The position numbers and the translations under genes were made by a program. A stretch of 64,000 nucleotides of DNA from the sequence record PZ452602.1; one strand, written 5' to 3'. Of this stretch, positions 9,017 through 17,463 are shown piece after piece. Position 1 is the first letter of the stretch; every line of letters starts with the position of its first letter. The notes below the pieces were generated by a model. The model was not told where the DNA came from. It searched no databases and was given only the letters and a program-made list of their open reading frames with translations. The stretch comes from a phage.

Positions 9017-10604
<1,588 letters not shown>

Positions 10605-10631
10605 AATAAAATGGGCCTTGCGGCCCACTCC

Positions 10632-11810
10632 TTAAAAATATTTTTTAAAACTCATCATAACTTTATCATCAACATCATTATCAATCTGTGCAACAAGGTA
10701 AGATGACAGTTCTACTTCTTGCGGTGCAGATTGAACATTATCAGAATTAAGATATTCACGAATCCAAGGATATGGATGTTTAACCGGAGCATCGGTAATT
10801 GGGCATGGAAGACCGCACTGTTTCATACGAGATACAGTTAAGTAATCAATAAAGCTCCACATGCTATTTGTATTTAATCCAGGAACATCGCCATCTTTAA
10901 ATAAATGAACTGCCCAATCTTTTTCTTGGCGGTTAACTTCCATGAAAATATCAACTGCTTCTTGTTCACACTCTTGAGCAATTTTAACCCATTCATTGCC
11001 ATCAATGCCAAGCTGAAGTTGACGAATAATATATTGGGTGCCCTTGAGGTGGAGCTGTTCATCGCGTGCAATGAACTTCATAATCTTGGCATTACCTTCC
11101 ATGATTTCCATGTTCTTATGGAAGTTAAAGGTACATGCGAAAGATACATAAAAACGAATAGCTTCCAATGCGTTGATTACATGCAAACAGAGGTAAAGAG
11201 ATTTCATTAGCTCACGCTTCCAATATGTCTCATGCTCAATAGCATCTTCAATAACGTCTTCGTCTGCATTAATTTCTTTTTGGTATTCGATATCAGCTTT
11301 AGCGTTTTCCCAATAACGAGTTTTAATCAGAACATCATCATAATAACGTCCAATGGATTCAGCACGTTTCATAATAGCTTCATCTAATACAATTTCATCA
11401 AATACCTTCGATGGATCAGTATAAAGATTTCGCATGATATGAGTATATGAACGACTGTGAATAGTTTCACTAAAAGTCCATGTAGCAACCCATGTATCAA
11501 GGCTTGGGTCTGAAATTAATGACATAAGTACAGCAGATGGCGCGCGACCCTGAATGCTATCTAAAAGTGATTGATACTTCAAGTTGTTAGTAAAAATATT
11601 TTGCTGATACTGAGGAAGCTTATTAAACTGTGCAGCATCCATCATCAAGTTTACTTCTTCAGGACGCCAGAAAAATGATAATTGCTTTTCGGTTAAATCT
11701 TCAAAAACTTTATGACGTTGAATATCATAACGCGCAATACCAAGACCTGAACCAAAAAACATAGGTTCTTTTAAAACATCAACTGGATTTGTATTAAAAA
11801 CTGTAGACAT
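10632..11810 (-). CDS. nrdB: ribonucleotide reductase small subunit
   Basis: Di-iron ExxH motifs (SETIHSRSY, ARDEQLHL); continuous ORF of about 392 aa from MSTVFNT, i.e. no intron. Confidence 0.9.
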   Translation of the reverse strand: MSTVFNTNPVDVLKEPMFFGSGLGIARYDIQRHKVFEDLTEKQLSFFWRPEEVNLMMDAAQFNKLPQYQQNIFTNNLKYQSLLDSIQGRAPSAVLMSLISDPSLDTWVATWTFSETIHSRSYTHIMRNLYTDPSKVFDEIVLDEAIMKRAESIGRYYDDVLIKTRYWENAKADIEYQKEINADEDVIEDAIEHETYWKRELMKSLYLCLHVINALEAIRFYVSFACTFNFHKNMEIMEGNAKIMKFIARDEQLHLKGTQYIIRQLQLGIDGNEWVKIAQECEQEAVDIFMEVNRQEKDWAVHLFKDGDVPGLNTNSMWSFIDYLTVSRMKQCGLPCPITDAPVKHPYPWIREYLNSDNVQSAPQEVELSSYLVAQIDNDVDDKVMMSFKKYF

Positions 11811-12541
11811 TAATTTTTCCTCTTTAAAATTCTGCCGCGTTTCCAACCTGGCGGTATAATATCATCTTTACCTATAAGCGTGCATTCACTTCCATTATTA
11901 ATCCATTTCTTACCACGGATTCCTTTATAATCTCTTGGTTGTATTTTGTCAAACTTTGCATCAAGTTGATATGCCCATCTAAATCCATAGGCATATTGAA
12001 ATTTGCCCTCAGCGCAATATTTGATATTTGACCCGTTTCCATTAACTGACCTGGACGCTGCCGCAATAGAGTGAAAGGTTTCTATGAAATCCCCATCTAA
12101 TGAGAATTTATGTATTTCGATAGATGGGCATGCATACCTATTCACGTTTGATACATGTTGTTTAGTTTCGTTTTTATGATGCTTGCCTAACATTCCTCTA
12201 GGATGAGGATTATTTTTCCAATATTTCTTAAAGAAATCAGAATTAGCTTTAGCAAATAATTTTCTGTGCAAGCTATACAATCTGTTATTAATTCTATTAC
12301 CAGCTTTATCTGTTGCCATTAACGTTAACGCAGAGGCAAGCCCAAAATGGCCTTCATTTATCTTACATAGTAATAGATGCGCTATAAAATGTTCTCTAGC
12401 TGTTAATTCAACTAAATTTTCTTTATCATCAGAACCTCCCATGCATTTAGGGACTATATGATGTGTCTCTTTATATTCGGATAAAGGTTCCCGAGCCTGA
12501 GCTCGGGAAATTAGGTCGTTATAGATTTTTTGATAATTCAT
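11810..12541 (-). CDS. mobE: free-standing HNH endonuclease (mobE-like, 243 aa)
   Basis: HNH motif HHIVPKCMGGSDDKENLVELTAREHFIAH; basic C-terminal tail; nested between nrdA and nrdB with 1-nt start/stop overlaps on both sides. Confidence 0.75.
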   Translation of the reverse strand: MNYQKIYNDLISRAQAREPLSEYKETHHIVPKCMGGSDDKENLVELTAREHFIAHLLLCKINEGHFGLASALTLMATDKAGNRINNRLYSLHRKLFAKANSDFFKKYWKNNPHPRGMLGKHHKNETKQHVSNVNRYACPSIEIHKFSLDGDFIETFHSIAAASRSVNGNGSNIKYCAEGKFQYAYGFRWAYQLDAKFDKIQPRDYKGIRGKKWINNGSECTLIGKDDIIPPGWKRGRILKRKN

Positions 12542-14805
12542 TACAATTTACACGCTGCACAATCGTCGGCTTTAGGAGTTTCGATTTCATAATCATCAGT
12601 ACCAGAACCATCGCGGGTATTATGATAATAGAAATTTTTAATGCCATAATACCATCCGTATAGCATATCATCAATCATTATTGACATTGGAACCTTTCCT
12701 TTTGGAAAAATCTGCGGGTCATAGTATGTATTCGCTGAAGCTGATTGACATACCCATTTCAGCATAATAGCTACCTGCGTAAGATAAGGTTTATTACCTT
12801 TCTTAGCTAATTTCCATGTATAATCATAGAGGTCTATGTTATGCTCAATATTGGGCACGACTTGATTAAAGGAGCCCTCTTTTGATTCTTTAACAGAGAC
12901 TGGTCCACGTGGAGGCTCGATACCGTTTGTACTGTTAGAAACTTGGGAAGATGACTCACATGGCATAAGTGCTGATAATGTGCTATTACGGATGCCAAAG
13001 AGCTTAAGGTCTTCCCGCAGCGACGACCAGTCACAAACGTATTTTGGAGCTGCGATTTGGTCAATCTTTTTATTGTACCAGTCGATAGGTAATTCGCCTC
13101 GAGACCAACGAGTGTCTGAATAATATTCACAAGGTCCTTTTTCTTTGGCGAGCTTAATGGATGCTTTAATGAGTCCATACTGTAATCTCTCAAATAGTTC
13201 ATGTGTTAAATCGTTAGCATCTTCATAAGAAGCAAAGTTACTTGCCAGCCAAGCTGCATAGTTAGTAACACCTACACCGAGGTTACGACGCTTTTTAGCT
13301 TTTTCTGCTTCATGAACTGGATATCCTTGGTAATCCAAAAGATTATCAAGAGCACGAACTTGGACTTCTGCCAATTCATTAATTTTATCTTGGTCTTGCC
13401 AGTCAAAATTATCCAGTACGAATGCAGAGAGAGTACACAATCCAATTTCAGCATCAGGACTATTCACATCATTTGTTGGAATAGCAATTTCACAGCACAA
13501 GTTACTCTGACGAATAGGTGCCTTTTCACGAATAAACGGAGTATAGTTATTCGTATTATCAATGAACTGCACATAAATCCTTGCTGTTCCTGAACGTTCA
13601 GTCATGAGCAATTCAAATAGTTCACGGGCTTTAATACGCTTTTTACGAATATTAGGGTCTTTTTCTGCTGCTTCGTATAATTCACGGAAACGGTCTTGGT
13701 CTTTAAAATAAGAATAATACAGCTCTCCACCCATTTCATGTGGACTGAACAAAGTAATGTAATCGTTCTTTCCGAATCGTTCCATCATCAAATCATTCAG
13801 CTGAACGCCATAATCCATATGACGAATGCGGTTTTCTTCTACGCCTTTGTTATTTTTCAAAACGAGAAGATTTTCAACTTCCAAATGCCAAATAGGATAA
13901 TAAGCAGTAGCAGCGCCGCCACGAATTCCACCCTGTGAACATGATTTAACTGCAGTCTGAAAATGTTTCCAAAAAGGAATAACACCAGTATGGCGTACTT
14001 CACCCATGCCAATCTTAGAACCTTCGGCACGAATCATACCAACGTTAATACCAATTCCAGCACGTTTGGAGATATATTCAACAATTGAAGCGGAAGCCTT
14101 ATTGATAGACTTTAATGAATCACCTGCCTCAATAACAACGCATGAACTAAACTGTCGAGTCGGAGTACGGCAACCAGCCATAATAGGAGTTGGCAATGAA
14201 ATCTGTCGAGTAGATACTGCTTCATAAAAACGAATAACGTGTTTTAATCTATCAACAGGTTCATCTTGATGCAATGCCATTCCAATAGTCATAAATGCAA
14301 ACTGTGGAGTTTCATAAATTTGACCGGTGGTTTTATCTTTAACTAGATATTTTTCTTTTAATTGCATCGCCCCGGAATAAGTAAATTCCATATCCCGCTC
14401 GTGCTTAATTTTTGATTCTAAAAATGTAATTTCTTCTGCTGAATATTTTGACAATAATTCAGGGTCGTATTTACCTTCATTTACGCAATAAGAAATATGG
14501 TCAATAAATGAACGTGGTTCATATTGTCCGTAAACATGCTTACGAAGAGCGAACATTAAACAACGTGCAGCTACATATTGATAATCAGGCTCTTCAACCG
14601 AAATAGAATTCGCAGCAGCCTTAATGACAATAGTCTGAATATCATCAGTTGTCATTCCATCACGGAGATAAGATTTAATATTTTCATATAATTCATAAGG
14701 ATCTACTGATGTTCCTTCAGCTGCCCAAGATAAAACTTTAATAATTTTTTGTGGGTCAAAGCTCTGAGAAACACCACTACTTTTGATAACATTAATTAAT
14801 TGCAT
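12541..14805 (-). CDS. nrdA: ribonucleotide reductase large subunit
   Basis: 754 aa; active-site NLCCEI motif and conserved C-terminal CxxC-type tail. Confidence 0.92.
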   Translation of the reverse strand: MQLINVIKSSGVSQSFDPQKIIKVLSWAAEGTSVDPYELYENIKSYLRDGMTTDDIQTIVIKAAANSISVEEPDYQYVAARCLMFALRKHVYGQYEPRSFIDHISYCVNEGKYDPELLSKYSAEEITFLESKIKHERDMEFTYSGAMQLKEKYLVKDKTTGQIYETPQFAFMTIGMALHQDEPVDRLKHVIRFYEAVSTRQISLPTPIMAGCRTPTRQFSSCVVIEAGDSLKSINKASASIVEYISKRAGIGINVGMIRAEGSKIGMGEVRHTGVIPFWKHFQTAVKSCSQGGIRGGAATAYYPIWHLEVENLLVLKNNKGVEENRIRHMDYGVQLNDLMMERFGKNDYITLFSPHEMGGELYYSYFKDQDRFRELYEAAEKDPNIRKKRIKARELFELLMTERSGTARIYVQFIDNTNNYTPFIREKAPIRQSNLCCEIAIPTNDVNSPDAEIGLCTLSAFVLDNFDWQDQDKINELAEVQVRALDNLLDYQGYPVHEAEKAKKRRNLGVGVTNYAAWLASNFASYEDANDLTHELFERLQYGLIKASIKLAKEKGPCEYYSDTRWSRGELPIDWYNKKIDQIAAPKYVCDWSSLREDLKLFGIRNSTLSALMPCESSSQVSNSTNGIEPPRGPVSVKESKEGSFNQVVPNIEHNIDLYDYTWKLAKKGNKPYLTQVAIMLKWVCQSASANTYYDPQIFPKGKVPMSIMIDDMLYGWYYGIKNFYYHNTRDGSGTDDYEIETPKADDCAACKL

Positions 14806-15062
14806 AAGTCCTCAACTTGAAAATCGTCTTTAAACAATCGGTTAACTATATGAGCTATTATATCACCATGACACGGCTTTGGTTTACATGTGCATCCTAG
14901 CCTCATTCCACGTAAAGGCTCTAAATGTGCTTTAGTTATTTCTCCGGATTTAATTCGACGTATAAAATCTTTTTTTGAATAATTCAATGGCAGCCTCCCG
15001 GCTGCCAGCATCTTTACCGACGTAATTTCCCCAAAATGTACCACGGTGAATATTAACATCAA
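14796..15062 (-). CDS. hypothetical protein (88 aa)
   Basis: Track ORF between td and nrdA. Confidence 0.5.
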   Translation of the reverse strand: MMLIFTVVHFGEITSVKMLAAGRLPLNYSKKDFIRRIKSGEITKAHLEPLRGMRLGCTCKPKPCHGDIIAHIVNRLFKDDFQVEDLCN

Positions 15063-15076
15063 AGTCGGATTTATAT

Positions 15077-15352
15077 TTATTCACTACCCGGCATAGACGG
15101 CCCGCGCGGTTGTAGGTGTTCATATTGTTCTTCCGTTAAAACAGTAATATCGTAGTAACAGTCAGAAGAAGTTTTAACTGTGGAAATTTTATTATCAAAA
15201 TACTCACGAGTCATTTTATGAGTATAGTATTTTTTACCATAAATGGTAATAGGCTGTTCTGGTCCTGGAACTTCTAACTCGCTTGGGTTAGGAAGTGTAA
15301 AAAGAACAACGCCAGAAGTATCTTTAAATCGTAAAATCATACATCCTCGCAA
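15077..15352 (-). CDS. hypothetical protein (91 aa)
   Basis: Track ORF between td and nrdA. Confidence 0.5.
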
Positions 15353-15360
15353 TAATAAAA

Positions 15361-16221
15361 TTACACCGCCATTTTTCCTTTAATTGGCAGATGAGATACA
15401 TAGTTGTTAAGAACAAAATTATGAGGCTTTGCAAATTGACTCAACCAAAATACCTGCGATTCTGTGTCCCATTCATCAAATTCATCTGGAAATTTTAATT
15501 GTAATTCGCATAAATCCATAGGTTCACGACGTAAAATTTCTTTACATTGTTCTACGTGATTCATATAGATATGAGTATTACCACCAGAAAATATCAAATC
15601 TCCAGGAATAAGATTACACATTTTAGCTACAATATGAACTAACGTAGCATATGATGCAATATTAAATGGAAGACCGAGGAAAACATCTACCGAACGTTGA
15701 TACCACTGCAAATCTAAATAGCCATTACGCACATTAAACTGATAGAACATATGACAAGGCGGTAATGCCATATATTTAAGTTCAGCTGGATTCCACGCAG
15801 AAACAATTTGACGCCTATCATTTGGCAGTTTTTTAATACGATCAACAACTTCTATAATTTGGTCTACACCGCCAAAATCACGCCACTGTTTTCCATAAAT
15901 TGGACCAAGTTCACCGCTATGATATCCTAAATCTTTTGCCTGATTTTCGTAATTTTCATCCCAGACTGTTTTACCTTGGATTAACGAATCGTGTTGAATT
16001 AATCGTAAATCATTGACATTTGTGCTTCCTGATAAAAACCATATTAGCTCAGCAATGCATGCATTCCAGGCGAGCTTTTTAGTTGTTACTGCAGGAAAGC
16101 CTTTAGTTAAATCCCAACGCAATTTAGTACCGAACAGAGCAATTGTTCCTGTGCCTGTGCGATCATCGGTTTCATAGCCATTTTCAAAAATGTCTTTAAT
16201 TAAATCTTGGTATTGTTTCAT
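15361..16221 (-). CDS. td: thymidylate synthase
   Basis: 286 aa; active-site [10 protein letters not shown]; continuous ORF, no intron. Confidence 0.92.

Positions 16222-16266: not shown

Positions 16267-17463
<1,197 letters not shown>

Follow-up and report, generated by a model that had tools for sequence, protein, structure and literature searches.

An RB3-type mobE homing endonuclease gene with a predicted target at the nrdA-nrdB junction of a T4-like phage with intronless td and nrdB

Introduction

In the 64-kb stretch of phage DNA analysed here (the window), an HNH endonuclease gene lies between the ribonucleotide reductase genes nrdA and nrdB, and a segment of the adjacent NrdB differs from its T4 counterpart. 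Which enzyme does this gene encode, where would it cut, and is the divergent NrdB segment a target altered to withstand cleavage, as a sequence-only reading of the window had suggested? The reference for such questions is T4 MobE, for which nicking and homing have been shown experimentally, with the nick at nrdB nt 122-126 and with T2, a mobE-less recipient, being experimentally MobE-sensitive (PMC2790892). The explanation that we prefer, with a probability of about 0.8, is that the window carries an RB3-type mobE homing endonuclease gene with a predicted target at the nrdA-nrdB junction, that the variable NrdB block is unrelated to it, and that td and nrdB are intronless.

Results

The window is from a Tequatrovirus (T4-like phage), and a 5.6-kb region around the gene matched more than 20 annotated phage genomes in one piece, at 94-97% identity and with conserved gene order (Table 1). 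Both td and nrdB were continuous open reading frames, as had been noted from the letters alone, and both were uninterrupted at the points where relatives carry group I introns, namely after td nt 549 in T4 (between 15673 and 15672 in the window, a point recovered by splicing T4 td) and after nrdB nt 676 in T4 and RB3 (between 11135 and 11134; exon 1 of RB3 nrdB is 676 nt). With its true start at the ATG at 11810 (MSTVFN...), the window NrdB was colinear with T2 NrdB and with the spliced T4 and RB3 proteins. The intron-borne endonuclease genes of T4 were likewise absent, as claimed: tblastn and blastn searches across the 64-kb window returned zero matches to I-TevI, I-TevIII, the td intron or the nrdB intron. 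A crude regex search of the window for other HNH or GIY-YIG homing endonuclease genes found none, although Seg-type genes could escape it. The intronless state of td and nrdB is common to most relatives. Among about 690 records matching the nrdB region, I-TevI was found in 216, the nrdB intron in 129, a T4/T6-type mobE in 71 and an RB3-type mobE in 55-59. An IMG/VR survey with NrdB returned only 34 dereplicated loci, mostly distant, and close relatives were taken one at a time from an annotated phage collection.

In the neighbouring nrdA.1, alignment with T4, T2 and JLBYU24 revealed an apparent frameshift at a run of seven A (14970-14976), compared with six in the relatives; deleting one A from this run brings back a 108-aa nrdA.1 open reading frame.

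Table 1. Features of the nrdB-td region and their positions in the window
Feature	Position	Strand	Details
td (thymidylate synthase)	15361..16221	-	286 aa, intronless; ORF list
nrdA.2	15077-15352	-	DUF5496 (Pfam)
nrdA.1	14796-15123	-	DUF4326 (Pfam)
nrdA (RNR large subunit)	12541..14805	-	754 aa
Free-standing HNH homing endonuclease gene, by sequence an RB3-type mobE allele	11810..12541	-	243 aa; PHROG 655, E = 1e-57
HNH catalytic head, codons 1-55	12377..12541	-	Pairwise DNA alignments; invariant columns; AF2 model
Hairpin UUCCCGAGC-UCAG-GCUCGGGAA then CCUUUAU	12488..12509	-	27 nt past the HNH AUG
DNA-binding tail, codons 56-243	11813..12376	-	No relation to T4/T6 MobE; Pfam, alignment, AF2
Candidate nrdB promoter (CGCTTAT, 12 nt, TATTAT)	11853..11880	-	Within the HNH ORF, at its 3' end; weak consensus match
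Region equivalent to that of the T4 MobE nick site, nrdB nt 114-131	11680..11697	-	Alignments; nick position from PMC2790892
Hypervariable NrdB block	11199..11330	-	nrdB nt about 481-612; allele A of at least five
nrdB (RNR small subunit)	10632..11810	-	392 aa, intronless

The 243-aa reading frame and the one-base overlaps (TAATG) that had been described on its two sides were both present, with ...AAATTGTAATGAATTAT... where it meets nrdA (overlap at 12541) and ...AAAAATTAATGTCTACA... where it meets nrdB (overlap at 11810). The nrdA stop, TAA followed by an in-frame TGA, overlaps the HNH ATG (TAATGA), which implies translational coupling; T4 has the same UAAUGA arrangement at nrdA/mobE (PMC2988022). 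PHROG 655 carries the label 'homing endonuclease', and the C-terminal 188 aa of the protein were at least 95% identical in about 55 records, including RB3, RB5 and RB7 'mobE' and AY262130.2 'MobE', identity being 99.5% for RB3 and 100% for G28 and ESh29. In RB3, G28, Sf23 and others, the genes with this tail (99.5-100% identical) are annotated as 'mobE' or 'homing endonuclease', the latter name being used for the equivalent gene in G28, Sf23, SH7, JLBYU24 and others. Having both the tail, at no less than 95% identity, and the same junction, the window gene is, as far as sequence can tell, an RB3-type allele of mobE. RB3 'MobE' itself (KM606994 RB3_226; AY262130.2) agrees with it in length (243 aa), locus and 1-nt overlaps. 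RB3 differs from the window in carrying an nrdB intron with an intact I-TevIII and a td intron with I-TevI, neither of which the window has, and in its NrdB block, which is allele E rather than allele A.

Homology with the T4/T6 mobE genes covered only the 3' end of nrdA and codons 1-55, the head being about 98% identical in nucleotides and about 95% identical in protein, and it broke off abruptly past His55. The catalytic residues of the HNH reading frame, on which its reading as a nuclease depended, were all present, with H27, H28, N42, H51 and H55 invariant in 40 homologues. The ββα-metal motif accordingly had its catalytic and metal-binding His and its structural Asn in place, while the Pfam HNH match (19.3 bits) stayed under the 21.4 cut-off. 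The AF2 model (pLDDT 89.5) placed strands at residues 25-28 and 43-46 and a helix at 48-61 in the order ββα. Its best fold match was I-HmuI of Bacillus phage SPO1 (PDB 1u3e; Foldseek E = 4e-3, probability 0.96), and searching solved structures by sequence yielded no more than a marginal hit, on a group II maturase HNH. Judged from its residues and predicted fold, the HNH catalytic head is intact.

The tail contained a NUMOD1 (aa 147-177, window 12011-12103; Pfam 25.9 bits against a cut-off of 22.8), a NUMOD3-like helix at about aa 117-131 and a C-terminal motif WINNG...IPPGWKRG. The NUMOD1 and the I-HmuI fold match point to a modular C-terminal DNA-binding region of the NUMOD type, and I-HmuI, like the window protein, starts with an HNH head at its N-terminus, after which comes an extended row of small DNA-binding modules; it differs in being an intron-encoded HNH nicking enzyme, whereas the window gene is free-standing, with about 10% identity and a global TM of 0.23-0.29. 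Over aa 68-191, the tail was 29% identical to T4 MobB, which is also an HNH protein of the 'Mob' family but lies at another locus, between α-gt genes, and for which no activity is reported (PMC2988022 Table 1). T6 MobE is 213 aa long and its T4 counterpart is split into mobE (141 aa) and nrdB.1 (83 aa); the T6 tail combines NUMOD3 motifs with a Cys-rich C-terminus, in contrast to the NUMOD1-containing, weakly MobB-like tail of the window protein. Homology did not extend over the full length as in a strict T4 MobE orthologue, and T6-type proteins covered only about 41% of the query. The earlier description of the gene as 'mobE-like' thus holds for its position and for codons 1-55, but not for the other 188 aa.

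The gene also shares the layout of T4 MobE, lying between nrdA and nrdB with a start that overlaps the nrdA stop and a hairpin near its 5' end, so that T4/T6 MobE and the window have in common the locus, the UAAUGA coupling to nrdA, the internal hairpin and the first 55 codons. The hairpin had a fold of -16.7 kcal/mol (z = -3.0) and was identical in sequence to T4, where a weak intrinsic terminator of known function has been mapped within mobE (PMC2790892); by analogy, it is the likely counterpart of that terminator. A generic promoter and terminator scan found neither the hairpin, the T tract of which is too short for it, nor an nrdB promoter, and its predicted sites were no more numerous than in shuffled sequence. 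A rigid search for a MotA box and -10 pattern found no nrdB promoter either. The 3' region of T4 mobE contains a middle promoter (PMC2790892), and the nrdB promoter candidate in Table 1 is a weak guess made by analogy with it. The GAGG Shine-Dalgarno sequence of nrdB, 9 nt 5' of its ATG, also falls within the HNH reading frame, at its 3' end.

We then considered the NrdB segment, which had been thought to be different from T4 in a way that would fit a diverged, cleavage-resistant target region. The segment, ENAKADIEYQKEINADEDVIEDAIEHETYWKRE (aa 168-200, window 11211-11309, nrdB nt 502-600), lies inside the hypervariable block, and the alignment confirmed the difference, with T4 and T6 reading ENAKDMVEYYKDQGLILADKDVEQRAKRD, which is 4 aa shorter, and with sliding identity of 38-63% in the block and 90-100% on either side of it. 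The divergence applied to T4 and T6 but not to T2, which has a near-identical copy. If the segment were the HNH enzyme's own target, mutated to resist cleavage, its difference from T4 and T6 and its location in nrdB, the target gene of T4 MobE (PMC2790892), would be readily accommodated. However, allele A was also present in seven HNH-less genomes (T2, PST, RB51, SHBML-50-1, CM8, PE37 and Kha5h), five segment alleles occurred among nine genomes with this same HNH gene, and four of those five were found among twelve genomes with an empty junction. No position in nrdB separated the HNH-positive from the empty genomes. The published T4 MobE nick lies about 375 nt upstream of the segment, and nrdB nt 114-131 of the window match the T2-like 'sensitive' form (…GAAAAGCAATTATCA…), not the T4/T6 variant, so that the nick region lacks the variant sequence expected of a phage with a strict T4 MobE orthologue. 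Because of this allele distribution, the distance of about 375 nt and the T2-like nick site, the segment is, on genomic grounds, no resistance determinant for the HNH enzyme, and we regard the idea that it is the enzyme's own altered target as extremely improbable. The block, which corresponds in E. coli R2 to residues about 158-190 (alignment to 1piy), is a common fast-evolving surface patch that reassorts freely and is unrelated to the nuclease. A relation of the block to the I-TevIII site was considered and rejected.

To locate the target, we compared the sequence tracts linked to each type of gene. In T4/T6-type genomes (n = 9), a linked tract spanned nrdB nt 6-129, ending at the published nick, which gave the approach a positive control; this variant tract is missing from the window. 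In RB3-type genomes (n = 9, compared with 10 T2-like empty genomes), linkage was restricted to nrdB nt 4-6, the last 28 nt of nrdA and, more weakly, a single site roughly 120 nt from the end of nrdA, in a panel that is small (9, 9 and 10 genomes), picked from BLAST lists and phylogenetically non-independent. The last 28 nt of nrdA carry a 'KADDCAACKL' haplotype common to all genomes with an endonuclease gene at the nrdA-nrdB junction. Since this tail and the T4/T6 MobE tail are unrelated and linkage is confined to the last 28 nt of nrdA and nrdB codon 2, the predicted target of the RB3-type enzyme is most likely the nrdA-nrdB junction or its close vicinity, and not nrdB nt 122-126; the insertion of the gene itself would replace such a target. 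The short linkage could also reflect old insertions followed by recombination, or an enzyme cutting a site present in all genomes, as SegH and Hef are said to do in the 2005 work of Sandegren et al.

The same authors reportedly described free-standing phage endonucleases that cleave their own genome, a behaviour that bears on another possibility, in which the window enzyme, through the shared head, cuts where T4 MobE does and its own T2-like site is tolerated or otherwise spared. The head is indeed about 95% identical to that of T4/T6 MobE, but in modular HNH and GIY-YIG enzymes the DNA-binding tail normally sets site choice, and the window tail is unrelated to the T4/T6 one. In the proposal of Wilson and Edgell, who pooled RB3 with the mobE-containing phages, nt 114-131 are read by the HNH head (PMC2790892). 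RB3-type genomes nevertheless lack a linked tract toward nt 122-126 such as T4/T6-type genomes have, and the site in the window itself has the sensitive sequence of T2, which makes a target shared with T4 MobE unlikely.

The presence of the gene at this fixed locus was sporadic among close relatives. The nrdA-nrdB junction is empty (51 nt) in Kha5h, T2 and others, and in Kha5h it adjoins an nrdB 99% identical to that of the window, variable block included; such presence and absence among near-identical genomes argues for ongoing gain or loss. Between two sub-clades, dN/dS was about 0.1 for the HNH protein (0.07-0.12 for the tail), a value that represents essentially a single comparison of two clades, and the protein is under purifying selection. 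These observations bear on whether the gene might be inactive in homing and kept for the nrdB expression signals that it contains, or for phage-phage competition. Its reading frame does harbour a possible promoter as well as the ribosome-binding site of nrdB, with a terminator near its 5' end, an embedding that Wilson and Edgell argue selects against deletion (PMC2790892), and the short linkage is compatible with old insertions. However, a dN/dS of about 0.1 over the whole protein, tail included, indicates selection on the protein beyond the embedded DNA signals, and the gene differs in presence between the near-identical Kha5h and window genomes. We consider retention without homing quite improbable, and prefer an RB3-type homing endonuclease with a junction target.

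The same junction is occupied in G8 (L037) and L028 by a large reading frame of 520-530 aa, unrelated to the window protein and with a weak, sub-threshold REase-like match (PF18741), which is probably the Hef of phage U5. Hef cleaves nrdB (PMC2988022).

Discussion

In the explanation that we prefer, the HNH gene would be expressed at a low level from nrdA transcripts, and in a mixed infection its protein would nick or cut the junction region of a co-infecting phage without the gene, whereupon recombinational repair would copy the gene, together with a few tens of flanking bases, into the recipient genome. An RB3-type mobE without td and nrdB introns is in itself ordinary, since dozens of annotated Tequatrovirus genomes already show it, and the gene content of the window fits the textbook view that homing elements are sporadic in T-even phages.

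Linkage tracts recovered the known nick position of T4 MobE from genomes alone, and could be used to predict the targets of uncharacterised free-standing endonucleases. The published logo of 'mobE-containing' versus 'mobE-lacking' phages (PMC2790892) pools two alleles with unrelated DNA-binding domains, so that predictions of the T4 MobE target should not be carried over to RB3-type genes.

A broader reading, which we put forward only tentatively, is that T-even 'mobE' comprises at least two homing endonucleases with one shared head, unrelated tails and different targets. If so, the T4/T6 type would cut nrdB nt 122-126 and the RB3/window type the nrdA-nrdB junction, and the conserved nrdA 3' end and head would form an upstream homology arm for allele replacement. 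T4/T6-type phages should then convert RB3-type phages in mixed infection, since the window keeps a T2-like, T4-MobE-sensitive nrdB site, and the two alleles would compete for the locus.

Gene layout and intron state

The sequence-only reading had described td and nrdB as intronless and a 243-aa HNH gene as nested between nrdA and nrdB with 1-nt overlaps on both sides, and both observations were borne out. The 5.6-kb stretch matched more than 20 Tequatrovirus genomes in a single piece at 94-97% identity (JLBYU24, Sf23, Aplg8, G9062, SH7 and others), all with identical gene order and with the middle ORF labelled 'homing endonuclease'. One-base overlaps were evident at the nrdA/ORF junction (AAATTGTAATGAATTAT) and the ORF/nrdB junction (AAAAATTAATGTCTACA); the upstream TTG start given for nrdB in the ORF list is an artefact. 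The td intron of T4 follows nt 549 (exon ...CTTGGGT, then intron TAATTGAG), and no interruption occurs at the equivalent window position. The nrdB product aligned colinearly with the NrdB of T2 and with the spliced products of T4 and RB3, and searches of the 64-kb window with I-TevI and I-TevIII (tblastn) and with both introns (blastn) returned no match.

Features of the region in window coordinates
Feature	Position	Strand	Remarks
rnlA, denA, nrdB, 243-aa ORF, nrdA, nrdA.1, nrdA.2, td, small ORF, frd, gene 32	8-20 kb	minus	T4 order
denA	10194-10628	minus	ORF list
nrdB	10632-11810	minus	392 aa; start codon ATG at 11810
Hypervariable block of nrdB	11199-11330	minus	nt ~481-612
HNH ORF	11810-12541	minus	243 aa
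nrdA	12541-14805	minus	ORF list
Last 28 nt of nrdA	12541-12571	minus	
nrdA.1	14796-15123	minus	DUF4326; A7 run at 14970-14976
td	15361-16221	minus	continuous 286-aa ORF
Equivalent of T4 td intron point	15673/15672	minus	
td-frd ORF	16267-16638	minus	123 aa; PHROG 1928, unknown function

The window thymidylate synthase was identical to that of T4 at 254/286 residues (89%), a greater divergence than in nrdA or in the bulk of nrdB. Around the I-TevI homing site, 7 of 48 td positions departed from the exon junction of T4, and T2, a good I-TevI recipient, also showed 7 differences, partly at other positions. The td-frd ORF was present in T2, T6 and JLBYU24 (where it is wrongly labelled 'dihydrofolate reductase') and absent from T4, whose td and frd overlap. 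nrdA.1 was frameshifted at its A7 run, which is A6 in T4, T2 and JLBYU24, and deletion of one A restored a 108-aa ORF; the extra A is either a homopolymer sequencing error or genuine, marking a pseudogene or a site of slippage.

The junction ORF and its relation to T4 and T6 mobE

The HNH ORF matched PHROG 655 'homing endonuclease' (E = 1e-57), with NUMOD1 above the Pfam threshold (aa 147-177) and HNH slightly under it. A lack of catalytic residues, which the sequence-only reading would have counted against itself, is contradicted by the invariance of E25, H27, H28, P31, C33, G36, N42, E50, H51 and H55 in a 40-sequence alignment, by alignment of the motif with a group II intron maturase HNH, and by an AlphaFold model (pLDDT 89.5) that predicts a ββα core and, after it, a series of small modules of helical and β type, with the nicking homing endonuclease I-HmuI as best PDB match (E = 4e-3, probability 0.96). 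Between two sub-clades of this type, dN/dS was ~0.1 (tail 0.07-0.12), effectively one two-clade comparison; judged from these sequences, the protein is under constraint.

At this position T4 carries mobE (141 aa) and nrdB.1 (83 aa), T6 a single 213-aa MobE, and T2 a 51-nt spacer alone. T4 and T6 shared ~98% DNA identity with the window from the nrdA end through nt 165 of the ORF; similarity ended abruptly past His55. A 9-bp hairpin lies within this head (codons 1-55), 27 nt downstream of the AUG; in T4, Wilson and Edgell showed it to act as a weak terminator (PMC2790892). T4 and T6 MobE have NUMOD3 motifs and a Cys-rich end and no counterpart of the window's 188-aa tail, which was 29% identical to T4 MobB and shared at least 95% identity with its counterparts in 55 phage records, including RB3, RB5 and RB7 (gene annotated mobE) and AY262130.2 ('MobE'). 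Full-length homologues occupied the nrdA-nrdB junction of Salmonella phages STML-198 and CGG4-1 and Citrobacter phage CF1, and since their heads (65-72% identity) and tails (58-67%) have diverged similarly, sequence comparison indicates that the window (RB3) type is an old lineage that has diverged as a whole gene; recent recombination appears to explain the nearly identical heads of the T-even alleles. T4 mobE plus nrdB.1 (L001 5717-6417) correspond to the single T6 gene (L004 13585-14226), yet the middle parts (aa ~60-130) differ from one another, which makes the T4 version a third variant, split or frameshifted.

A hypervariable NrdB block unlinked to the endonuclease

The NrdB segment flagged earlier as unlike T4 (aa 168-200) did differ from both T4 and T6. 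It lies in a block where sliding identity between genomes, 90-100% elsewhere along nrdB, fell to 38-63%. The block has at least five deeply divergent alleles, of which a 23-genome panel showed five, with NrdB lengths of 388, 389 and 392 aa (379 aa in the distant loci L011 and L038).

Block alleles by junction occupant
Allele	With this HNH gene	Empty junction	T4/T6-type mobE
A	window, JLBYU24	T2, PST, RB51, SHBML-50-1, CM8, PE37, Kha5h, L005	
B	Sf23	none in panel	T4, T6
C	IME537, L009	L007, L036	
D	SH7, EC121	L008	
E	RB3, G28	L010	

The proposal that this segment is a cleavage-resistant target was not supported: allele A also occurs in empty genomes such as T2 and Kha5h, and the nine genomes that carry this HNH gene included all five alleles. 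The cleanest comparison is with Kha5h, whose junction is empty and whose nrdB matches the window at 99% identity across nt 1-700 with the block included. Block alleles reassorted independently of the junction occupant, and no nrdB position told HNH-positive from empty genomes. The block aligned with E. coli R2 residues ~158-190, a peripheral hairpin region between iron-ligand helices. Plausibly, this patch tolerates structural change, evolves fast and is reshuffled by recombination.

Probable target of the RB3-type enzyme

The T4 MobE nick in T2 nrdB falls at nt 122-126; phages with this gene show a variant sequence over nt 114-131 (PMC2790892), where the window is T2-like. Site-by-site association was compared among genomes of the T4/T6 type (n = 9), the window type (n = 9) and the T2-like empty type (n = 10), a small panel with statistics that ignore kinship. 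For the T4/T6 type (T4, T6, L051-L057), strongly associated sites spanned nrdB nt 6-129 and none lay beyond, so that the tract ended at the experimentally mapped nick. Both mobE types, in all genomes compared, carried the KADDCAACKL haplotype over the final 28 nt of nrdA, where seven positions showed fixed differences from the KAEDCSSCKL of T2-like empty genomes; one weaker associated site was located ~120 nt away from the end of nrdA. The distant empty genomes L005 and L010 had an nrdA end with AACK like mobE carriers, but their last codons differed. The simplest reading of these linkage patterns is that the RB3-type enzyme would break DNA at or very near the junction replaced by its own insertion; alternatively, the target may be a sequence that every genome shares, or the insertions may be old and their linkage eroded.

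Distribution and significance

Among ~690 records matching the nrdB region, most nrdA-nrdB junctions were empty; I-TevI was found in 216, the nrdB intron in 129, T4/T6-type mobE in 71 and window-type mobE in 55-59. A fourth occupant, a 520-530-aa ORF in phage G8 (L037 4409-6001) and L028 (4440-5999), showed weak REase_MTES_1575/DUF559 (restriction-endonuclease-like) similarity and is probably Hef of phage U5. IME537 carried an extra 'putative homing endonuclease' ORF (L043 1-341) upstream of a truncated nrdA annotation (331-1320); this suggests that nrdA has been invaded by a second endonuclease gene, an arrangement recalling Aeh1 mobE.

That this locus holds a mosaic of homing elements is well established (PMC2988022), and the element in the window, correctly observed in the sequence-only reading, is already catalogued; the specific mechanism proposed in that reading is refuted. 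The remaining interest is that the single name 'mobE' stands for two or more alleles whose DNA-binding tails are unrelated and whose targets probably differ, a point of which we found no statement in the literature covered (Sandegren et al. 2005 lies outside that coverage), and that population linkage alone may locate the targets of free-standing endonucleases.
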